The notes beneath the pieces were generated by a model, which made no database searches, was not told the DNA's origin, and was given only the letters and a program-made list of their open reading frames with translations. Below are positions 3,588-14,447 of a stretch of 31,269 nucleotides of DNA, in pieces. The stretch is taken from the IMG/VR virus record IMGVR_UViG_2651869696_000013, one strand, 5' to 3'. The stretch's first letter is position 1. Each line of letters begins with the position of its first letter. The stretch comes from a virus (lineage: Duplodnaviria > Heunggongvirae > Uroviricota > Caudoviricetes). Position numbers and translations under genes: made by a program.

Positions 3588-3859
3588 GCATTCGTATTGA
3601 AATTGGCGAACGTTATGTGGTTACCAGTGACAGCTTCCAGTTTATTCTCCACGAGAAAAAGAGAGCGGAAAGCGGTAAAAACGCCGGTCAGGAGTGGCTG
3701 GCGGTGGTTGGTTATTACCCGAAATTAAGCCAGCTCGTTTCCGGCCTGATGCATCACGATATTCTGACCGGAAGCGCAAAATCTTTTGCCGATTTAAACG
3801 CGCAGGTTGAGCAACTCAGCAAGCGTTGCTCAGAGGCTTTTGGCTCACATGGCCGTTAA
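3584..3859 (+). CDS. small early hypothetical protein
   Basis: 91-aa ORF, GGAGAA RBS, overlaps the A start. Confidence 0.55.
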   Translation: MSIRIEIGERYVVTSDSFQFILHEKKRAESGKNAGQEWLAVVGYYPKLSQLVSGLMHHDILTGSAKSFADLNAQVEQLSKRCSEAFGSHGR

Positions 3860-6134
3860 AGCCTCCGGGCGTTTTGTCCCTCCGTCAGCATTTGCCGCAG
3901 GCACCGGTAAGGCGTTTACCGGTGCTTATGCATGGAACGCGCCACGCGAGGCCGTCGGGCGCGAAAGACCCCTTACACGTGACGAGATGCGTCAGGTGCA
4001 AGGTGTTTTATCCACGATTAACCGCCTGCCTTACTTTTTGCGCTCGCTGTTTACTTCACGCTATGACTACATCCGGCGCAATAAAAGCCCGGTGCACGGG
4101 TTTTATTTCCTCACATCCACTTTTCAGCGTCGTTTATGGCCGCGCATTGAGCGCGTGAATCAGCGCCATGAAATGAACACCGACGCGTCGTTGCTGTTTC
4201 TGGCAGAGCGCGACCAGTATGCGCGCCTGCCGGGGATGAATGACAAGGAGCTGAAAAAGTTTGCCGCCCGTATCTCATCACAGCTTTTCATGATGTATGA
4301 GGAACTCTGCGATGCCTGGGTGGATGCGCATGGCGAGAAAGAATCGCTGTTTACGGATGAGGCGCAGGCTCACCTCTATGGTCATGTTGCTGGCGCTGCA
4401 CGTGCTTTCAATATTTCCCCTCTCTACTGGAAAAAATACCGTAAAGGACAGATGACCACGAGGCAGGCATATTCTGCCATTGCCCGCCTGTTTAACGATG
4501 AGTGGTGGACTCATCAGCTTAAAGGCCAGCGTATGCGCTGGCATGAGGCGTTACTGATTGCTGTCGGGGAGGTCAATAAAGACCGTTCTCCTTATGCCAG
4601 TAAACATGCCATTCGTGATGTGCGTGCGCGCCGCCAGGCAAATCTGGAGTTTCTTAAATCGTGTGACCTTGAGAACAGGGAAACCGGCGAGCGCATCGAC
4701 CTTATCAGTAAGGTGATGGGCAGTATTTCTAATCCTGAAATTCGCCGGATGGAGCTGATGAACACCATTGCCGGTATTGAGCGTTACGCCGCTGCAGAGG
4801 GTGATGTGGGGATGTTTATCACGCTGACCGCGCCGTCAAAGTATCACCCGACACGTCAGGTCGGAAAAGGCGAAAGTAAAACCGTGCAGCTTAATCACGG
4901 CTGGAATGATGAGGCATTTAATCCAAAGGATGCGCAGCGTTATCTCTGCCGTATCTGGAGCCTGATGCGCACGGCATTCAAGGATAATGATTTACAGGTC
5001 TACGGTTTGCGTGTCGTCGAGCCACACCACGACGGAACTCCGCACTGGCATATGATGCTTTTTTGTAATCCACGCCAGCGTAACCAGATTATTGAAATCA
5101 TGCGTCGCTACGCGCTCAAAGAGGATGGAGACGAAAGAGGAGCCGCGCGAAACCGTTTTCAGGCAAAACACCTTAATCGGGGCGGTGCTGCGGGGTATAT
5201 CGCGAAATACATCTCAAAAAACATCGACGGCTATGCACTGGATGGTCAGCTCGATAACGATACTGGCAGGCCGCTGAAAGATACTGCTGCGGCTGTTACC
5301 GCATGGGCGTCAACGTGGCGCATTCCGCAATTTAAAACGGTTGGTCTGCCGACAATGGGGGCTTACCGTGAACTACGCAAATTGCCTCGCGGTGTCAGCA
5401 TTGCTGATGAGTTTGACGAGCGCGTCGAGGCTGCACGCGCCGCTGCAGACAGTGGTGATTTTGCGTTGTATATCAGCGCGCAGGGCGGGGCAAATGTCCC
5501 GCGCGATTGTCAGACTGTCAGGGTCGCCCGTAGCCCGTCGGATGACGTTAACGAGTACGAGGAAGAAGTCGAGAGAGTGGTCGGCATTTACGCGCCGCAT
5601 CTCGGCGCGCGTCATATTCATATCACCAGAACGACGGACTGGCGCATTGTGCCGAAAGTTCCGGTCGTTGAGCCTTTGACTTTAAAAAGCGGCATCGCCG
5701 CGCCTCGGAGTCCTGTCAATAACTGTGGAAAGCTCAACGGTGGTGATACTTCGTTACCGGCTCCCACACCTTCTGAGCACGCCGCAGCCGTGCTTAATCT
5801 GGTTGATGACGGTGTTATTGAATGGAATGAAACTGAGGTCGTGAGGGCGCTCAGGGGCGCATTAAAACACGACCTGCGAACGCCAAACCGTCAGCAAAGA
5901 AACGGAAGCCCGTTAAAACCGCATGAAATTGCACCATCTGCCAGACTGATCCGGTCGGAACGATTGCAAATCACCCGTATCCGCGTTGACCTTGCTCAGA
6001 ACGGTATCAGGCCGCAGCGATGGGAGCTTGAGGCGCTGGCGCGTGGCGCGACCGTAAATTATGACGGGAAAAAATTCACGTATCCGGTCGCTGATGAATG
6101 GCCGGGATTCTCAACAGTAATGGAGTGGACATGA
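3849..6134 (+). CDS. A: rolling-circle replication initiator endonuclease gpA
   Basis: 761-aa product from ATG 3849 (MAVKASGRF...); HUH-like PHWHMMLF and paired tyrosines in GYIAKYISKN typical of the P2 A nickase. Confidence 0.92.
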   Translation: MAVKASGRFVPPSAFAAGTGKAFTGAYAWNAPREAVGRERPLTRDEMRQVQGVLSTINRLPYFLRSLFTSRYDYIRRNKSPVHGFYFLTSTFQRRLWPRIERVNQRHEMNTDASLLFLAERDQYARLPGMNDKELKKFAARISSQLFMMYEELCDAWVDAHGEKESLFTDEAQAHLYGHVAGAARAFNISPLYWKKYRKGQMTTRQAYSAIARLFNDEWWTHQLKGQRMRWHEALLIAVGEVNKDRSPYASKHAIRDVRARRQANLEFLKSCDLENRETGERIDLISKVMGSISNPEIRRMELMNTIAGIERYAAAEGDVGMFITLTAPSKYHPTRQVGKGESKTVQLNHGWNDEAFNPKDAQRYLCRIWSLMRTAFKDNDLQVYGLRVVEPHHDGTPHWHMMLFCNPRQRNQIIEIMRRYALKEDGDERGAARNRFQAKHLNRGGAAGYIAKYISKNIDGYALDGQLDNDTGRPLKDTAAAVTAWASTWRIPQFKTVGLPTMGAYRELRKLPRGVSIADEFDERVEAARAAADSGDFALYISAQGGANVPRDCQTVRVARSPSDDVNEYEEEVERVVGIYAPHLGARHIHITRTTDWRIVPKVPVVEPLTLKSGIAAPRSPVNNCGKLNGGDTSLPAPTPSEHAAAVLNLVDDGVIEWNETEVVRALRGALKHDLRTPNRQQRNGSPLKPHEIAPSARLIRSERLQITRIRVDLAQNGIRPQRWELEALARGATVNYDGKKFTYPVADEWPGFSTVMEWT

Positions 6135-6586
6135 TGGCAAAAATTCACGAGGTAAAGCTGCACGCAAAATATTTCGACCTTGTGCTGGAAGGAAAGAAAC
6201 GCGCAGAGTTTCGGAAAAATGACCGTAATTATGAGCGCGGGGACACGTTGATTTTGCATGAATGGGTGCAGGGTGTGTATACGGGGCGAAAGGTTGAAGC
6301 CCGGATAACAGATGTTACTGACCTGTCAGACTGGCTGGAAGATTATGTCTTGCTAAGTATTGAGCTGCTTAATACAGGTGCATATGAGATTGTGAACTGG
6401 AAAGAACTTAGTGAGCGTGGTCTGGTATTCAGAATTAATCATGAAATTATGCATCAGCTCGGCCTTGCTGTTATGTATGAACCAGAGACGGGGATGTCTG
6501 GCGGGGCAATGGTTGCCACGGATGGAGCATGGAACTATTCAGATGAACAGATGGAGCGTGCACAGCAAAACGGGTGGCTTGGATAA
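6131..6586 (+). CDS. ASCH/DUF3850-like domain protein
   Basis: ATG overlaps the A stop; N-terminal EVKLHAKYFDLVLEGKKRAEFRKNDRNYERGDTLILHEW resembles the ASCH (PUA-like) fold signature; call is by recalled similarity. Confidence 0.6.
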   Translation: MMAKIHEVKLHAKYFDLVLEGKKRAEFRKNDRNYERGDTLILHEWVQGVYTGRKVEARITDVTDLSDWLEDYVLLSIELLNTGAYEIVNWKELSERGLVFRINHEIMHQLGLAVMYEPETGMSGGAMVATDGAWNYSDEQMERAQQNGWLG

Positions 6587-6792
6587 TGCACAGAATACCA
6601 GGCGAGATACCTCAGCATAAAACTAAAAATATCAAGCTGATGGCCATTGTTCACCGTCTGCAGCGGATTATGGTCAACGAAAATCTGACGCCAGATGAGC
6701 TAGTCGGGTGTGCCGAAATAGTCCGGGATAATTACGGGCGGTTTAACCATATCGGTCAATCAAGAGTTACGCCACCACCACGAAGACGATAG
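6586..6792 (+). CDS. small hypothetical protein
   Basis: 68-aa ORF; ATG overlaps the upstream stop (TAATG); no recognisable motif. Confidence 0.4.
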   Translation: MHRIPGEIPQHKTKNIKLMAIVHRLQRIMVNENLTPDELVGCAEIVRDNYGRFNHIGQSRVTPPPRRR

Positions 6793-6913
6793 AGAACGCC
6801 GCCAGTCGTGAAACTTGTTTTCAGGGCTGGCGGGGTTGAACAACTCGCGAAGCGAGGCGTTAGTTGACAGTCATATTTTTACTGCGTTGGTGCTGGTTTT
6901 TGACGGTTGAAAG

Positions 6914-6938
6914 GAGTTAGCTCGGAGAGCTAAAGCTA
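6914..6938. repeat. nested palindrome GTTAGCTC-GGA-GAGCTAA-AGCTAAC upstream of the cargo cassette
   Basis: Read directly: TTAGCTC / GAGCTAA inverted repeat with 3-nt spacer, plus a second AGCTAAC copy that could pair alternatively. Confidence 0.3.
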
Positions 6939-7021
6939 ACAACTTACAAATATTCAAAAGTAAGCTTCCTGTTGCTAACATAAGATCGATTTTTTATGTG
7001 GATGATGCAAAAAGGATAGCT

Positions 7022-7753
7022 ATGGATATTGTAATCGCTTTTCTATCACTCGCTTTTTTCGTTGCTTTTTTCATCGGGTTAATCAAGCCATCACTGGTGC
7101 GGATGCCAAACCGTAAACGTGCAAGTGCGGTTTATCTCGGAGGTGGTTTTGCATTGAGCATAATTGGTTCAATACTCTACCCAACAGAAAAAAGCCAGCC
7201 AGTTGCTAAAACTGAAACAGCAACCGTAGCAGAACATCAGGCTCAAAAAACATTCGAATATACTGAAAAAACACTCAAGGAATATCGGAACGAGCCAAAG
7301 AAGACTCGACACGATATTGTGAATAGTTACATTAACTTTAAGAAAGTGCCAGTCACCGCATCAGATGCATTTTATGCTTGCATGAGTGAGTATACATTTA
7401 CCAAAGATGATGAGTTGAAACTCGGTGATGTTCTTGGATGGTGCTTTAATGATTATGAAAATGACCCGAATTCACTAAACAATAAAATCAATCTTGATAC
7501 ATTTCAGAGCAATTTTAGTGGTTGGGATGGTTCTTATCGTCCATTGGAAAAACTAATTAAGGATAATATGAACGATGATTCATCTTATAAACATGTGTCA
7601 ACGGTATATCATTTGGTTTTGAATAAAGACCCGCACGCCATTGTGAAAACCACATTTCGTGGCACTAATGCTTATGGAGGAGTAGTTAAACAGACTATTG
7701 CTGCGCGTGTCGACATCCGAACGGGCGAAGTCGTTTCAGTATTAGATAACTAA
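7022..7753 (+). CDS. cargo membrane protein: two N-terminal TM helices plus ~170-aa soluble domain; function unknown
   Basis: ATG 7022 with AAGGA 6 nt upstream (track start 6998 is GTG); hydrophobic stretches IVIAFLSLAFFVAFFIGLI and AVYLGGGFALSIIGSILY; AT-rich. Confidence 0.7.
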   Translation: MDIVIAFLSLAFFVAFFIGLIKPSLVRMPNRKRASAVYLGGGFALSIIGSILYPTEKSQPVAKTETATVAEHQAQKTFEYTEKTLKEYRNEPKKTRHDIVNSYINFKKVPVTASDAFYACMSEYTFTKDDELKLGDVLGWCFNDYENDPNSLNNKINLDTFQSNFSGWDGSYRPLEKLIKDNMNDDSSYKHVSTVYHLVLNKDPHAIVKTTFRGTNAYGGVVKQTIAARVDIRTGEVVSVLDN

Positions 7754-7788
7754 TCGTTGATGCCGTATTGATACTTGTTATACTAGTG

Positions 7789-7818
7789 GTGGAACGAGAC
7801 TGCAATAGTCTGTTCCAC
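7789..7818 (+). other. stem-loop between the two cargo genes
   Basis: GTGGAACGAGACT-GCAAT-AGTCTGTTCCAC, about 12 bp stem with one bulge; no downstream U-tract, so not a classic intrinsic terminator. Confidence 0.3.
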
Positions 7819-7895
7819 AACAGGAGTAATTACCTTGACTGTAAGTTGCTTTTATTGAGGGAACTATGAAGTTTAAGACTGAATTGAGTTGAAAA

Positions 7896-9155
7896 TTGCA
7901 TGACTCGGTAGTGTTTGATTTGAAAAAAGACCTGGTAAAATTAGAGGGAAACCTAAAAAATACAGATTTGTTGTTGTCGTTTCAGTTCAAAATAATAAGG
8001 AATATAATTAGAAGTGAAAGGATGATCAAAGGATTAAAGTCTTTCTTAGGGGAACTAAAGGCAACAAAAAGAAAAGGTGGTTTAAAAAAAGAACAATCTA
8101 AACTTATTAAGGAAAATATTAAGAGTGTTGAGCAGGCTATTGATGATGTGAAATTTAAAATATATATCTTCAAAATGTTTGGTGATAGTGTTGCTTTTTT
8201 GTATTTGGATAAGTTTGATATTAAGCATTTTTTCTATAATGTTGTGGATTACAGTCCCAAGGAGTCAGCGGGCTATATGGGAGGGAAGGATGGCTTAAAA
8301 GAAGAATGGGAATTGGTGAAGAAGGCCTGCAAGGCTGGTGTTCCTACGTTACTCAATGATATTACAATGAGTATGAGGCATGGTGATGTTTGTTTACTTG
8401 GTGAAGGTGCACCAGTACTGGTGGAGGTGAAATCAAGTCAAAATAAAAATGATCGTGTTGAACGTCAAAAAAATAACCTTAATAGACTGGCTGGATTTTT
8501 AGCAGAAGATAAAGCTGAAGATTTTAGAGGGATGCCATTAGTGTTAAGGAAAGAACTGTGTTTTTCAGAAGTTACATATAAAAAAGAATTTAATGAGCAT
8601 CTGAATGTATGCAGGAAAAAAGGAATTTCATGGGTAAGGCTAGAAGATGGATTTTATGTGGTATCTAATCGTGGCTGTGATCTGGATATAGCATTATCAC
8701 AGTTGGATCTTAGAGGGAGGGAAATTGCACCTATATTTTTGAATGAATATAAAAATAATCAGTTGTGGGTTCCTTTAACTCCATTTGTTAATCTTATAAA
8801 TGATGCGCGTGATTTGTGTGACTTTATAAATGGGGAGTTAACTATTCTCTGTGTTCTTGATTTGGATTGTTTTAAACAAATAGCTTTGAATGAAGGGTTT
8901 GAGCTTGTTTTTGTCGATGGTGAAGACTATTCGATGATATTTAAAGAATTAGGTAGCTCATTGATTTGGGGTGTGTCATGGCAAATGATGCTTCGCACTC
9001 CTTTAGAAATGGTGTCAATGTCTTGGTTAATTAAAGATTCAATTGATAGATTTAAACGTTTACAAAAGCAACATGCTGAGATGCAGCCTGCCACTGATGT
9101 TAATACATCCGAAACCTCCTTGTTTGAAAAATATAGGCCTCTTTTTACAAAGTAG
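7896..9155 (+). CDS. cargo protein with PD-(D/E)xK-like nuclease signature; function unknown
   Basis: Long ORF in AT-rich DNA; track start is TTG 7896, first ATG is 8022, so start is uncertain; motif GDVCLLGEGAPVLVEVK (D164 ... E177-V-K179, nt 8385-8432); no Walker A motif seen. Confidence 0.7.
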   Translation: MHDSVVFDLKKDLVKLEGNLKNTDLLLSFQFKIIRNIIRSERMIKGLKSFLGELKATKRKGGLKKEQSKLIKENIKSVEQAIDDVKFKIYIFKMFGDSVAFLYLDKFDIKHFFYNVVDYSPKESAGYMGGKDGLKEEWELVKKACKAGVPTLLNDITMSMRHGDVCLLGEGAPVLVEVKSSQNKNDRVERQKNNLNRLAGFLAEDKAEDFRGMPLVLRKELCFSEVTYKKEFNEHLNVCRKKGISWVRLEDGFYVVSNRGCDLDIALSQLDLRGREIAPIFLNEYKNNQLWVPLTPFVNLINDARDLCDFINGELTILCVLDLDCFKQIALNEGFELVFVDGEDYSMIFKELGSSLIWGVSWQMMLRTPLEMVSMSWLIKDSIDRFKRLQKQHAEMQPATDVNTSETSLFEKYRPLFTK

Positions 9156-9292
9156 TCAGATGCTGTAGGTGTATATGCTATTGCATTAATTTGCATGCAA
9201 AACAAGTAGAGGTAAAAACTCTTACAGGCTGCTTGGGGGATAGCTTTTGAATGCTAATGCATTTGCATTCAAATTGCCCCATGAAGCGGGCG

Positions 9293-9311
9293 GGCGAGGC
9301 GGGGAAAGCAC
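9293..9311. other. cos site (P2-type 19-nt cohesive end GGCGAGGCGGGGAAAGCAC)
   Basis: Exact match to the P2 cohesive-end sequence as recalled; located between the cargo region and the Q 3' end, as in P2. Confidence 0.7.
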
Positions 9312-9453
9312 TGCGCGCTGGCGGTGGTGCTGATTTTATTTTTTCAGCGTCTGAGCGCGTCGTGAAGGCGCTTAGTCTGCCCGTTGAGGCGTTGGTGTGT
9401 CTGCGGGGTGTTTTGTGCGGTGGTGAGCGTGTGAGGGCGTGATGGCGGGTTGT

Positions 9454-9480: not shown

Positions 9481-10515
9481 TCAGCCGTTGTCAGTGTCCA
9501 GTGAGTAGTTTTTAAAGCGGATGACCTCCTGACCGAGCCAGCCGTTCATCTCGCGGATCCTGTCCTGTAACGGGATAAGCTCATTGCGGACAAAGACCTT
9601 TGCCACTTTCTCAATATCTCCCAGTGACCCGACGTTCTCCGGCTTGCCGCCCATCAACTGAAAGGGGATGCGGTGTGCGTCCAGCAGGTCAGCGGCGCTG
9701 GCTTTTTTGATATTAAAAAAATCGTCCTTCGTCGCCACTTCACTGAGCGGGATAATTTTAATGCCGTCGGCTTTCCCTTGCGGGGCATAGAGAAACAGAT
9801 TTTTAAAGTTGTTGCGGCCTTTCGACTTCACCATGTTTTCGCGGAGCATTTCGATATCGTTGCGATCCTGCACGGCATCGGTGACGTACATGATGTATCC
9901 GGCATGTGCGCCGTTTTCGTAATACTTGCGGCGGAACAGCGTGGCCGACTCATTCAGCCAGGCAGAGTTAAGGGCGCTGAGATATTCCGGCAGGCCGTAC
10001 AGCTCCTGATTAATATCCGGCTCCAGCAGGTGAAACACGGAGCCGGGCGCGAAAGGTGTCGGCTCATGGAAGGACGGCACCCACCAGTAAACATCCTCTT
10101 CCACGCCACGGCGGGTATATTTTGCCGGTGAGGTTTCCAGTCTGATGACCTTACCGGTGGTGCTGTAACGCTTTTCCAGAAACGCATTACCGAACACCAG
10201 AAAATCCAGCACAAAGCGGCTGAAATCCTGCTGGGAAAGCCACGGATGCGGGATAAATGTCGAGGCCAGAATATTACGTTTGACGTAAATCGGTGAGCTG
10301 TGATGCACGGCAGCACGCAGGCTTTTTGCCAGACCGGTAAAGCTGACCGGTGGCTCATACCATCTGCCGTTACTGATGCACTCGACGTAATCCAGAATGT
10401 CACGGCGGTCGAGTACCGGCACCGGCTCACCAAAGGTGAATGCCTCCATTTTCGGGGCGCTGGCGGTCATTTTTTTTGCCGCAGGTTGCGGTGTTTTCCC
10501 TTTTTTCTTGCTCAT
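9481..10515 (-). CDS. Q: portal protein gpQ
   Basis: 344-aa ORF, P2 Q-like sequence and length; start overlaps the P stop (ATGA). Confidence 0.93.
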   Translation of the reverse strand: MSKKKGKTPQPAAKKMTASAPKMEAFTFGEPVPVLDRRDILDYVECISNGRWYEPPVSFTGLAKSLRAAVHHSSPIYVKRNILASTFIPHPWLSQQDFSRFVLDFLVFGNAFLEKRYSTTGKVIRLETSPAKYTRRGVEEDVYWWVPSFHEPTPFAPGSVFHLLEPDINQELYGLPEYLSALNSAWLNESATLFRRKYYENGAHAGYIMYVTDAVQDRNDIEMLRENMVKSKGRNNFKNLFLYAPQGKADGIKIIPLSEVATKDDFFNIKKASAADLLDAHRIPFQLMGGKPENVGSLGDIEKVAKVFVRNELIPLQDRIREMNGWLGQEVIRFKNYSLDTDNG

Positions 10516-12287
10516 CAGTAAAACTCCAGAATGGTGGATGTCAGCGGAGTGCTGATACCGGCGGTGAGTGGCTCATTTAACAGGGCGTGCATGGTCGCCC
10601 AGGCGAGGTCGGCGTGGCTGGCTTCCTCGCTGCGGCTGGCCTCATAGGTGGCGCTGCGTCCGCTGCTGGTCATGGTCTTGCGGATAGCCATAAACGAGCT
10701 GGTGATGTCGGTGGCGCTGACGTCATATTCCAGACAGCCACGGCGGATAACGTCTTTTGCCTTGAGCACCATTGCGGTTTTCATTTCCGGCGTGTAGCGG
10801 ATATCGCGCGCGGCGGGATAGAACGAGCGCACGAGCTGGAACACACCGACACCGAGGCCGGTGGCATCAATCCCGATGTATTCGACGTTGTATTTTTCGG
10901 TGAGTTTGCGGATGGATTCTGCCTGGGTGGCAAAGTCCATGCCTTTCCACTGGTGACGCTCAAGGATCCTGAATTTGCCACCGGCCACCACCGGCGGTGC
11001 CAGCACCACGCATCCGGCGCTGTCGCCACGGTGTGACGGGTCGTAACCAATCCATACCGGGCGGGAGCCGAACGGATTTGCGGCAAACGGCGCATAGTCT
11101 TCCCATTCTTCCAGCGTGTCGACCATACAGCGTTGCAGCTCCTCGAACGGGAACACCGACGCCTTGTCGTCAACAAATTCACACATGAACAGGTTTTTAA
11201 AATCGTCGGCGCTGTTTTCGCGTTTGAGCTGCTCAATGTCGAACAGCGTGCAGCCGCCTTTCAGGGCGTCCTCAATGGTGACAATCTGCCGCCACTGGCC
11301 GTCCGCACAGAGAAGCCCACCGGCAAGGGCGTTATGACTGACGTCGATTTCCACGCGTTCGGCGGCGCTGGCGCGTCCCCGGTTGAACAGTTCACCCGAC
11401 CAGAACGGGTAGGCGTCGTGCGCCAGCGTGGACGGGGTGGAGAAATAGGTCGATCGCAGGTGACTCTGTGAGGCCATACCTGATGCCACCTTACGCAGCA
11501 CCTGAAAATTCGGGATCCAGAAAATCTCGTCGACGTACAGGTCGCCGTTATGGCTCTGCGCGGTGTTGGAGTTGGTGCCGAGAAAAATCAGTTTTGCGCC
11601 GTTATTGCCCAGGACAATCGGGTCACCGGTCAGGTCAACGTCAACCAGACGGGCAAAGGCGATGATGTATTCACGGAACACATACGCCTGCGTTTTACTG
11701 GCCGACAGAAAAATCTGGTTATGACCGGTTTTCAGGGCGCGCAGCAGCGCCTCGCGGGAAAAATAAAACGTCGCGCCAATCTGGCGGGATTTCAGGATAT
11801 CGCGGATGCGGTGCTCAAGCCCGGCGCGATACCAGTGCAACTGATAATCGAAAGACTGCTCAAAGAAAATCTGCTCCAGCTTTTCGATGGCCTCGTCACT
11901 GAAAAAATTCTTTTTCGGTTTGCGCCGCCCGCCTTTGTTGCGGTTAGCGACGTTCGGATTAAGGTCTGCCTCGTTGCCGGTCTGGCTGTAGCGGTTTACC
12001 CGTGCCAGTCGTTCAATCTGGCGTCCCAGCAGGTCAATTTCCTTGAAATCACCGCCGGTTTTCTGCGGTTTGATGATGAGCTGGGTCAGCCGCGCTTCCA
12101 GACTCATTTCGACACGGCTGATGGGGGCAACGCTGTCCCAGCTGTCGCGCTGTTTCCAGCTCTGCACCGTCGGGCGTTTCATCTGCAACATGGCGGCAAT
12201 CTGCGGCACGGAAAATCCCTGCCAGTACAGCAGCGCCGCCTGACGACGCGGGTCGTGTAAAAGAGTGGTGTCTGTGGTGATGGTCAT
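10515..12287 (-). CDS. P: terminase large (ATPase) subunit gpP
   Basis: Start trimmed to ATG at 12287 (MTITTDTTLLHDPRRQ...), giving 590 aa as in P2 P. Confidence 0.93.
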   Translation of the reverse strand: MTITTDTTLLHDPRRQAALLYWQGFSVPQIAAMLQMKRPTVQSWKQRDSWDSVAPISRVEMSLEARLTQLIIKPQKTGGDFKEIDLLGRQIERLARVNRYSQTGNEADLNPNVANRNKGGRRKPKKNFFSDEAIEKLEQIFFEQSFDYQLHWYRAGLEHRIRDILKSRQIGATFYFSREALLRALKTGHNQIFLSASKTQAYVFREYIIAFARLVDVDLTGDPIVLGNNGAKLIFLGTNSNTAQSHNGDLYVDEIFWIPNFQVLRKVASGMASQSHLRSTYFSTPSTLAHDAYPFWSGELFNRGRASAAERVEIDVSHNALAGGLLCADGQWRQIVTIEDALKGGCTLFDIEQLKRENSADDFKNLFMCEFVDDKASVFPFEELQRCMVDTLEEWEDYAPFAANPFGSRPVWIGYDPSHRGDSAGCVVLAPPVVAGGKFRILERHQWKGMDFATQAESIRKLTEKYNVEYIGIDATGLGVGVFQLVRSFYPAARDIRYTPEMKTAMVLKAKDVIRRGCLEYDVSATDITSSFMAIRKTMTSSGRSATYEASRSEEASHADLAWATMHALLNEPLTAGISTPLTSTILEFY

Positions 12288-12460
12288 GAATACCTCGCCG
12301 TGATGAATACACGGCAAGGCTACTGAGTCGCGCCCCGCGATTCGCTAAGGTGCTGTTGTGTCAGTGATAAGCCATCCGGGACTGATGGCGGAGGATGCGC
12401 ATCGTCGGGAAACTGATGCCGACATGTGACTCCTCTAATCACTATTCAGGACTCCTGACA

Positions 12461-13315
12461 ATGGCAAAAAAAGTCTCAAAATTCTTTCGTATCGGCGTTG
12501 AGGGTGACACCTGTGACGGGCGTGTCATCAGTGCGCAGGATATTCAGGAAATGGCCGAAACCTTTGACCCGCGTGTCTATGGTTGCCGCATTAACCTGGA
12601 ACATCTGCGCGGCATCCTGCCTGACGGTATTTTTAAGCGTTATGGCGATGTGGCTGAACTGAAGGCCGAAAAGATTGACGATGATTCAGCGCTGAAAGGC
12701 AAATGGGCGCTGTTTGCGAAAATCACCCCGACCGATGACCTTATCGCGATGAACAAGGCCGCGCAGAAGGTCTATACCTCAATGGAAATTCAGCCGAACT
12801 TTGCCAATACCGGCAAATGTTATCTGGTGGGGCTGGCCGTCACCGATGACCCGGCAAGCCTCGGCACGGAATACCTGGAATTCTGCCGCACGGCAAAACA
12901 CAACCCCCTGAACCGCTTCAAATTAAGCCCTGAAAACCTGATTTCAGTGGCAACGCCTGTTGAGCTGGAATTTGAAGACCTGCCTGAAACCGTGTTCACC
13001 GCCCTGACCGAAAAGGTGAAATCCATTTTTGGCCGCAAACAGGCCAGCGATGACGCCCGTCTGAATGACGTGCATGAAGCGGTGACCGCTGTTGCTGAAC
13101 ATGTGCAGGAAAAACTGAGCGCCACTGAGCAGCGCCTCGCAGAGATGGAAACCGCCTTTTCTGCACTTAAGCAGGATGTGACTGACAGGGCTGATGAAAC
13201 CAGCCAGGCATTCACCCGCCTGAAAAACAGTCTCGACCACACCGAAAGTCTGACCCAGCAGCGCCGCAGCAAGGCCACCGGCGGTGGCGGTGACGCCCTG
13301 ATGACGAACTGCTGA
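12461..13315 (+). CDS. O: capsid scaffolding protein gpO
   Basis: Start at ATG 12461 (MAKKVSKFFRIGVEG...), 284 aa as in P2 O; divergent from P. Confidence 0.9.
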   Translation: MAKKVSKFFRIGVEGDTCDGRVISAQDIQEMAETFDPRVYGCRINLEHLRGILPDGIFKRYGDVAELKAEKIDDDSALKGKWALFAKITPTDDLIAMNKAAQKVYTSMEIQPNFANTGKCYLVGLAVTDDPASLGTEYLEFCRTAKHNPLNRFKLSPENLISVATPVELEFEDLPETVFTALTEKVKSIFGRKQASDDARLNDVHEAVTAVAEHVQEKLSATEQRLAEMETAFSALKQDVTDRADETSQAFTRLKNSLDHTESLTQQRRSKATGGGGDALMTNC

Positions 13316-13373
13316 CCGGCGTCAGTCAGTCCGGGAAAACCTTCACGATTAACCCTTAATTTCAGGAAAAACT

Positions 13374-14447
13374 ATGCGCCAGGAAACCCGCTTTAAATTT
13401 AATGCCTACCTGTCCCGTGTTGCCGAACTGAACGGCATCGACGCCGGTGATGTGTCGAAAAAATTCACCGTTGAACCGTCGGTCACCCAGACCCTGATGA
13501 ACACCATGCAGGAGTCCTCTGATTTTCTGACCCGCATCAACATTGTGCCGGTCAGCGAAATGAAAGGGGAAAAAATTGGTATCGGTGTCACCGGCTCCAT
13601 CGCCAGCACCACCGACACCGCCGGTGGCACCGAGCGTCAGCCGAAGGACTTCTCGAAGCTGGCGTCTAACAAGTACGAATGCGACCAGATTAACTTCGAT
13701 TTTTATATCCGCTACAAAACGCTGGACCTGTGGGCGCGTTATCAGGATTTCCAGCTCCGTATCCGTAACGCCATTATCAAACGCCAGTCCCTTGATTTCA
13801 TCATGGCCGGTTTTAACGGCGTGAGGCGTGCCGAAACCTCTGACCGCAGCAGCAATCCGATGCTGCAGGATGTGGCGGTCGGCTGGCTGCAGAAATACCG
13901 CAATGAAGCCCCGGCGCGCGTGATGAGCAAGGTCACTGACGAGGAAGGTCACACCACCTCTGAGGTTATCCGCGTGGGCAAGGGCGGTGATTATGCCAGC
14001 CTTGATGCACTGGTGATGGATGCGACCAACAACCTGATTGAACCGTGGTATCAGGAAGACCCTGACCTTGTGGTGATTGTGGGGCGTCAGCTACTGGCGG
14101 ACAAGTATTTCCCCATCGTCAACAAGGAGCAGGACAACAGCGAAATGCTGGCCGCTGACGTCATCATCAGCCAGAAACGCATCGGTAACCTGCCGGCGGT
14201 ACGCGTCCCGTACTTTCCGGCGGATGCGATGCTCATCACGAAGCTGGAAAACCTGTCCATCTACTACATGGATGACAGCCATCGCCGCGTGATTGAGGAA
14301 AACCCGAAACTCGACCGCGTGGAGAACTACGAGTCAATGAACATTGATTACGTGGTGGAAGACTATGCCGCCGGTTGTCTGGTGGAAAAAATTAAGGTCG
14401 GTGACTTCTCCACACCGGCTAAAGCGACCGCAGAGCCGGGAGCGTAA
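13374..14447 (+). CDS. N: major capsid protein gpN
   Basis: 357 aa, P2 N-like; RBS CAGGAAA before ATG. Confidence 0.93.
   Translation: MRQETRFKFNAYLSRVAELNGIDAGDVSKKFTVEPSVTQTLMNTMQESSDFLTRINIVPVSEMKGEKIGIGVTGSIASTTDTAGGTERQPKDFSKLASNKYECDQINFDFYIRYKTLDLWARYQDFQLRIRNAIIKRQSLDFIMAGFNGVRRAETSDRSSNPMLQDVAVGWLQKYRNEAPARVMSKVTDEEGHTTSEVIRVGKGGDYASLDALVMDATNNLIEPWYQEDPDLVVIVGRQLLADKYFPIVNKEQDNSEMLAADVIISQKRIGNLPAVRVPYFPADAMLITKLENLSIYYMDDSHRRVIEENPKLDRVENYESMNIDYVVEDYAAGCLVEKIKVGDFSTPAKATAEPGA

Follow-up and report, generated by a model that had tools for sequence, protein, structure and literature searches.

A candidate single-gene anti-phage nuclease with a predicted Hjc-like PD-(D/E)xK core in the P2 hotspot of an E. 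coli prophage

Introduction

Shedu is a single-gene defence system whose PD-(D/E)xK effector nuclease is held in check by an N-terminal domain, and Type IV enzymes, such as Mrr and MspJI, are solitary enzymes that join a PD-(D/E)xK nuclease to a specificity domain and lack a methyltransferase partner. Here, we examine an open reading frame (ORF) of 419 amino acids (aa) plus stop, which begins with TTG and lies at positions 7896-9155 (plus strand) of the IMG/VR record IMGVR_UViG_2651869696_000013, a stretch of 31,269 nucleotides (nt), hereafter the window, that corresponds to a P2-like (Peduovirus) prophage of E. coli. This ORF carries all the conserved parts of its family and, judging from the sequence, most likely represents a new family of candidate anti-phage nucleases encoded by a single gene, with a putative nuclease activity and a putative defence role.

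The ORF belongs to the cos-proximal interval between gpA and gpQ, i.e., the “P2 hotspot” of Rousset et al. 2022 (PMC9122126), for which 18,150 loci and 1,650 gene arrangements are on record and which hosts old and tin in P2 itself. The product of old, found in the same slot, is a nuclease excluding other phages (PMC9122126). In the psu-int hotspot of P4, Aernus 5A is a system of the PD-(D/E)xK class that protects against phages and whose top Foldseek match is the Holliday junction resolving enzyme (Hjc) (PMC13586616). The systems detailed in File S3 of the same study further include Toga (AAA/SMC-head ATPase), Bandua 4A (NERD domain), Reve (KAP P-loop protein), Crouga (helicase-type, ResIII/DEAD) and Hailong (NTase/HEPN plus a channel, IRK).

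A predicted PD-(D/E)xK core with an Hjc-like active site

The original prediction for this ORF located a PD-(D/E)xK-like signature in the peptide RHGDVCLLGEGAPVLVEVKSS, which is indeed encoded, even though it spans residues 161-181 and not 160-180, and numbered the putative catalytic residues D164, E177 and K179, in agreement with their codons (8385-8387, 8424-8426 and 8430-8432, respectively, G163 preceding D164). The catalytic motif, D164-x12-E177-V-K179, occupies positions 8385..8432 of the plus strand. Taken alone, the bare D...ExK pattern is weak evidence, since D-x(10-20)-[DE]-x-K is found in 97% of the shuffles of the protein, against 1.4% for a stricter motif with its hydrophobic context. 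What raises the motif above chance is its conservation in 168 divergent sequences: in this alignment, of which the mean column identity is ~25%, D164, E177 and K179 are each 100% conserved, as are E137 and Q191. The complete set of invariant positions consists of D97, G133, E137, D164, E177, K179, Q191 and R367, while E41, D155, T157, R161, R187, R218 and E250 are conserved in at least 98% of the sequences. All the hallmark residues of PD-(D/E)xK enzymes (the glutamate of the upstream helix, the D...ExK motif and the downstream glutamine) are present and conserved, and the loss of the motif among homologues, which the original prediction had suggested looking for, is not seen, D164, E177 and K179 being kept in 168/168.

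The family profile (residues 120-225, 168 sequences) was compared using hhalign with a profile of the Hjc family, obtained from a query identical to PDB 1hh1_A and 60 Hjc homologues, all annotated as PF01870. The two profiles align over 83 columns with a probability of 89.8%, an E-value of 1.8e-6 and a score of 39.5, in a register that places E137, D164, E177 and K179 on E12, D42, E55 and K57 of Hjc, as well as G133-x3-E137 on G8-x3-E12, the spacing between the aspartate and the glutamate amounting to 13 residues on both sides. The same region is picked when the full-length family alignment is used (70% probability), and the register is identical when the family profile is compared to the single Hjc sequence. 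As for the controls, the C-terminal domain and the reversed core reach only 1.1% and 0.8% against Hjc, respectively, and 60 column shuffles yield a score of 12.2 ± 2.3, with a maximum of 18.2, vs. 39.5 for the real alignment (z ~12).

Library searches with the protein itself returned no match in Pfam, NCBIfam and PADLOC (PADLOC-DB v2.0.0: 0 at an E-value of 1 or better), and PDB searches by sequence (single sequence and two profiles) gave nothing past coiled-coil noise. In PHROGs, the protein is near-identical to phrog_14906, a group for which no function is named, our ORF covering positions 11-429 of 429. When 110 diverse members of the family were scanned singly against Pfam and PADLOC, only isolated near-noise matches were recovered (PADLOC E-values of 0.0017 or worse), mostly to PD-(D/E)xK models, i.e., PDDEXK_9, Cas4 (two models), CARF_PDDEXK (two members), REase_II and SduA, with another one to a CBASS endonuclease effector. 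None of these members matched PF01870 at an E-value of 0.1 or better.

The full-length AlphaFold2 model, built from a 23-sequence alignment, is confident (predicted local distance difference test, pLDDT, of 88.1; predicted template modelling score, pTM, of 0.88), with values of 83-95 for the blocks of the core. Based on the model, the conservation and the hhalign comparison, the core extends over residues 126-217 (8271..8546, plus strand). Its first half is modelled as a helix (132-146, bearing E137), a strand (151-153, followed by D155) and a second strand (165-167, preceded by D164), and its second half as a strand (174-176, followed by E177 and K179), a helix (186-204, bearing R187 and Q191) and a beta hairpin. 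As modelled, this is the canonical alpha-beta-beta-beta-alpha-beta order of the restriction-endonuclease fold, with the conserved residues at the corresponding places. Structure searches with the models, as proposed in the original prediction, returned no significant nuclease match. Altogether, the invariance pattern and the hhalign comparison make the PD-(D/E)xK assignment highly probable in our view, and the signature initially spotted is upheld by invariant residues, a canonical order in the model and the alignment to Hjc.

The position of the motif was also described roughly correctly, as central with flanking regions. Upstream, residues 3-103 (7902..8204, plus strand) are predicted to form a long antiparallel helical hairpin, with Q30, E41 and G96-D97 conserved, and are modelled as three helices (3-18, 23-60 and 65-103; pLDDT of 88-97), for which structure searches and PDB sequence searches gave only coiled-coil or syntaxin-like matches. 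In a model restricted to residues 104-398, from which the hairpin was removed, the confidence of the core dropped from 83-95 to below 50, the C-terminal domain being unaffected. This loss points to a close association of the hairpin with the core, and the helical hairpin appears to pack against the nuclease core in the model. Downstream, residues 229-396 (8580..9083, plus strand) form a confidently modelled alpha/beta domain, the conserved residues of which are E250, G252, P296, F310, R367, E371 and S374, and for which no significant structural or sequence neighbour was found. The idea that this domain might be a degenerate duplicate of the core was rejected (hhalign: 1%). By analogy with other nuclease systems made of one protein, the flanking domains may regulate or target the nuclease, with the C-terminal domain as a putative regulator or sensor.

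Comparison with described systems

The protein is Hjc-like in its core but stands outside the Hjc family. Hjc (PF01870; PDB 1hh1) is a single-domain, dimeric archaeal housekeeping enzyme of ~140 aa, whereas the present family gathers bacterial proteins of ~420 aa encoded on mobile elements, which add a 100-residue helical hairpin, a 170-residue C-terminal domain and extra conserved residues (D97, D155, R161, R187, E250 and R367). Shedu SduA (DUF4263/PF14082) is of similar size and also found in defence islands, and SduA genes adjoin members of our family in two loci. However, the nuclease of Shedu is C-terminal, while it is central in our family and surrounded by other domains; moreover, PF14082 has no match among the 110 members and the only PADLOC match to SduA is at noise level (E-value of 0.06). 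Compared to the Type IV enzymes Mrr and MspJI, the family shows neither a match to Mrr_cat or any other restriction endonuclease (REase) family nor a recognisable reader domain.

Aernus 5A shares with our family both the P4 psu-int hotspot and the PD-(D/E)xK class, but it associates DUF4365 and AbiGii with a second gene (MtlR-like), whereas our family matches neither of these Pfam models and stands alone. Identity with Crouga, Bandua, Aernus, Toga, Reve or Hailong was rejected, none of their Pfam families being matched by the 110 members. In addition, neither strand of the PMC13586616 constructs contains the DNA words that the P4-type homologues conserve, in an exact-word search that a diverged or recoded copy could escape. 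Finally, Old combines an ABC-ATPase with a TOPRIM nuclease, whereas our protein has no P-loop (no Walker A motif was found in it) and, like the 110 members, no match to ATPase or TOPRIM families in Pfam or PADLOC, in line with the original prediction that it is not an Old-type ATPase-nuclease. What is new is the family, which is unnamed and without a Pfam model, while a PD-(D/E)xK nuclease as hotspot cargo is familiar.

Family distribution and genomic neighbourhoods

A word-indexed search recovered 22 clusters, down to 26% identity, and an exhaustive profile search at least 1,376 representatives at 50% identity (E-value of 1e-3 or better), of which 467 at an E-value of 1e-30 or better. The family proteins measure ~400-430 aa and, among the 150 representatives listed, most are ~400 aa long and match from end to end. 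The genome loci, retrieved with the 23-sequence alignment, belong to Alpha-, Beta- and Gammaproteobacteria, Acidobacteria, Chloroflexi, Bacteroidetes, Planctomycetes, Spirochaetes, Myxococcales, Nitrospinae, Streptomyces (Actinobacteria) and a Firmicute. Within E. coli, the gene is present in 17 out of 5,426 genomes, compared to 84 for the cargo gene that precedes it in the window (cargo A). In the plasmid collection, only three records contain it. Neither the RefSeq accessions nor the PHROG identifier are mentioned in the searchable literature, its supplements or the DefensePredictor supplements.

In the window, the gene is the last cargo ahead of cos in the gpA-gpQ hotspot, the sequence GGCGAGGCGGGGAAAGCAC (19 nt, 9293-9311, plus strand) being what we take to be the P2 cohesive end (cos). 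With a GC (guanine-cytosine) content of 35%, vs. ~55% for the backbone of the phage, it stands out as foreign cargo. In a P2-like prophage of Citrobacter, gpA and portal are separated by no other gene than a 70%-identical homologue, and 50%-identical homologues sit between psu and int of P4-like satellites (e.g., Pluralibacter), the corresponding P4-type protein clusters being recorded from Serratia, Klebsiella, Salmonella and E. coli. The family is found in both the P2 gpA-gpQ and the P4 psu-int hotspots, plus chromosomal islands near known defence genes.

To characterize the neighbours, all ORFs within 3.5 kb were clustered across 80 species-level loci. There was no conserved partner gene (no neighbour family in more than 3 of the 80 loci), and neither a methyltransferase nor an antitoxin neighbour was detected in this set. 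Immediate defence neighbours were Shedu SduA (two loci), Gabija GajB (two loci), HerA, QatC/QatD, PDC-S19 and a MADS gene, the other immediate neighbours being integrases, a resolvase, portal and ArdC. In Ramlibacter (6846-7982 of that locus), an HTH_3 + Peptidase_M78 (ImmA/IrrE-like) gene ends 19 bp upstream of the homologue, on the same strand, and in Vibrio cholerae (6217-7935 of that locus), a large serine recombinase immediately precedes the homologue, which borders an integrated element.

Start codon and state of the allele

While the original prediction hesitated between a start at TTG 7896 and one at ATG 8022, the homologues point to ATG 7866. They are 429 aa long, begin with MKFKTELSRKLHDS and start 10 codons upstream of TTG 7896, at an ATG preceded by a Shine-Dalgarno-like GAGGGA (7857..7868, plus strand, ATG included); intact alleles (WP_085004853 from strain TUM14771, WP_096908064) have a RefSeq coding sequence of 1,290 nt, and Citrobacter shows the same start context. 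In contrast, a start at ATG 8022 would delete most of the hairpin, including the conserved Q30 and E41. In the window, a premature TGA (7890..7892, plus strand) intervenes at codon 9, owing to a single C>T change at 7890 (CGA, Arg, to TGA) that is private to this sequence: codon 9 encodes Arg in the relatives (CGA or AGA), the 81-nt stretch around 7890 mismatches the window in 17/17 complete E. coli genomes carrying the gene (by one base in 16 and two in one), and the intact CGA was directly read in two E. coli alleles.

The closest allele (strain TUM14771) shows 2 differences in 2,401 bp, i.e., the TGA site and a Glu-to-Gly change (GAA to GGA at 8494, residue 200 of the 419-aa ORF). Residue 200 sits in the helix after the catalytic strands, in a column that is not conserved in the family. 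Given the TGA at codon 9, TTG 7896, which lies three bases past the stop and is preceded at 7 nt by a weak GAG, could at best serve for reinitiation. The ORF that it opens is what a nonsense mutation of very recent date has left, unless the TGA is a sequencing error, and this allele is either inactive or expressed only via weak reinitiation at TTG 7896. Such a termination-reinitiation is conceivable and would retain every conserved residue; the ten lost N-terminal residues lack conservation, as the start of distant homologues falls near TTG 7896. A recent nonsense mutation is relevant to anyone cloning the gene from this source.

Proposed function and alternative explanations

If the site works as in Hjc, Mg2+ would be bound by E137, D164 and E177, while K179 would position or activate the attacking water, and Q191, along with the family-specific D155, R161, R187 and R190, would line the active site. 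Sandwiched between the N-terminal helical hairpin and the C-terminal alpha/beta domain, the core might be kept inactive by these domains, or receive its specificity from them, until a phage-derived cue or substrate appears, candidates being a replication intermediate with branches or free ends, DNA that carries modifications and a protein of the phage. Once triggered, the nuclease would cut nucleic acid (a DNA structure, modified DNA or RNA) and the infection would be halted, through either direct restriction or abortive infection. A solitary gene, carried as cargo in anti-phage hotspots and in islands of defence genes and mobile elements, suggests a single-gene nuclease for anti-phage defence or competition between elements. 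Loci made of random unknowns from the P4 hotspot did protect against phages in 6/8 cases (Moura de Sousa et al. 2026, PMC13586616). All in all, we find it reasonably probable that the whole chain holds, namely that the protein is a stand-alone, hotspot-borne nuclease involved in phage-phage and phage-host conflict, with a metal site of the Hjc type (two acids plus a lysine) and two flanking domains that restrain or target it. A bolder version, which we put forward only tentatively and with some doubt, makes it the founding member of a widespread anti-phage system of a new kind, made of a single gene, in which a resolvase-like nuclease would be gated by the hairpin and the C-terminal domain, perhaps sensing branched or recombination intermediates. 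If true, DNA structure, and not sequence, would act as the non-self signal, and the resolvase-like core does suggest such a structure as a testable trigger. Regardless of this, an uncharacterised hotspot gene gains a testable identity: it belongs to a large, multi-phylum family, has an Hjc-type active site whose catalytic residues can be named, and combines this site with two more conserved domains in the absence of a partner gene. Should its role in defence be borne out, the known nuclease systems would be joined by a compact one of 1.3 kb.

Several points weigh against a defence nuclease. P2-hotspot genes include partition systems and toxins, with 3/8 P2 loci validated (Rousset, PMC9122126), and machine-learning flags only 15-32% of the unknown P2 hotspot proteins as antiviral (PMC13586616, PMC9122126). 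All named members of the family are annotated “hypothetical protein”, and the gene is carried by none of 50,697 records of isolated phage genomes. Concerning the core itself, the second comparator, E. coli YraN (PF02021/UPF0102, taken from the K-12 record), aligns in register but non-significantly (0.9%), a comparison that is low-powered because the YraN set is near-redundant (at least 75% identical; effective number of sequences, Neff, of 1.65) and because accepted relatives, Hjc and YraN, reach only 13% in the corresponding control. Moreover, the substrate could be RNA instead of DNA, and the copy in the window may be non-functional.

Among the alternatives, a modification-dependent (Type IV-like) restriction enzyme would be a sub-variant of the defence reading, in which phage DNA would be cleaved by the core without an activation step or abortive infection, the C-terminal domain serving to recognise a modified base or some other non-self feature of the DNA. 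It would account for the hotspot position and for a solitary gene flanked by neither methyltransferase nor antitoxin, and Type IV enzymes typically add a further domain to a PD-(D/E)xK core; yet the C-terminal domain matches no SRA, EVE/ASCH, YTH or winged helix reader, and the noise-level REase_II match is the only one to an REase or Mrr family. We deem this variant unlikely. Still less likely is an enzyme serving the DNA metabolism of the mobile element (a junction resolvase or recombination nuclease acting in replication, packaging or integration) and not defence. The closest detectable relative is a Holliday-junction resolvase, the gene adjoins cos and lies downstream of a replication gene, and many phages encode resolvases. 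However, such a service to the element itself is difficult to reconcile with so patchy a distribution: the gene is rare in E. coli genomes even though P2-like prophages are common there, absent from the isolated phages, and present in satellites using helper packaging as well as in non-phage islands of many phyla, among unrelated neighbours. Besides, resolvases are three times smaller than the protein and lack its two additional conserved domains, and its GC content marks foreign cargo.

The most radical alternative, according to which the motif is coincidental and the protein is no nuclease but, e.g., a structural or regulatory coiled-coil protein, could invoke the ease with which shuffling creates a loose D...ExK and the lack of Pfam, PADLOC and PDB sequence matches or of a significant nuclease in the structure searches. 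We hold it to be very improbable and already disfavoured, in view of five canonical positions that are invariant over 168 divergent sequences, an in-register match to the Hjc profile far above shuffles and a canonical order in a confident model. A last possibility concerns the allele and not the family, and is compatible with the candidate anti-phage nuclease favoured above: the copy in the window might be a fresh pseudogene yielding no functional protein. For this copy, the chances seem evenly balanced. The TGA at codon 9 is found in none of the 17 other genomes, and TTG 7896 has only the weak GAG to rely on; on the other hand, the 2 substitutions separating the window from an intact allele indicate no further decay, a stop 3 nt ahead of an in-frame TTG is favourable to termination-reinitiation, the loss affects 10 residues without conservation, and the change could be a sequencing error.

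Other features of the locus

Upstream of the gene, the window successively encodes the replication endonuclease gpA (3807-6134), a DUF3850/ASCH + DUF7415 protein (6098-6586, plus strand), the gene of which overlaps the end of gpA, a small ORF assigned to phrog_11386 (6574-6792, plus strand), and cargo A (6998-7753, plus strand). ASCH domains are PUA-like in fold and recognise RNA or modified bases. DUF3850/ASCH is a recurrent first gene in many P2 hotspot arrangements of Rousset Table S5A. The phrog_11386 ORF is annotated as frameshifted in strain 98207 and is intact in TUM14771. Cargo A is a membrane-protein gene (243-251 aa, N-terminal membrane segment, phrog_3403) with no match in Pfam or PADLOC. 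Unlike our gene, it is listed in a literature supplement, as “hypothetical” within a “DUF3850/ASCH + hypothetical + hypothetical” arrangement of Rousset Table S5A that was not validated there (PMC9122126). A linkage between cargo A and our gene was rejected, as cargo A also occurs without it; since it is paired with different downstream genes in different P2-like phages (P2_2H4 and P2_4A7b), cargo A is an independent hotspot module.

Between cargo A and our gene, a promoter-like site (TTGATG-16-TATACT with an upstream TG; 7757..7784, plus strand) lies just past the stop of cargo A and may drive our gene independently, albeit as a consensus match in a region where the count of such sites is not above shuffle expectation. 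It is followed, ahead of the start codon, by a strong inverted repeat (7789..7818, plus strand) predicted to fold into a stem-loop (GUGGAAC...GUUCCAC, with an inner AGACU/AGUCU pairing). The 87-nt region 7784-7870 has a minimum free energy of -25.8 kcal/mol (z = -2.75) and, as the stem-loop has no T tract, it is no canonical terminator. Downstream, a 63-aa ORF (9251-9442, plus strand) spans cos and is annotated as a hypothetical protein in some RefSeq genomes, but is probably no gene. The portal (9481-10515) and terminase (10515-12317) genes then follow on the opposite strand. In strain 98207, an otherwise near-identical prophage carries an IS21-family element (ISEc12 istA/istB) between the terminase and capsid-scaffold genes (11615-13917 of that locus).

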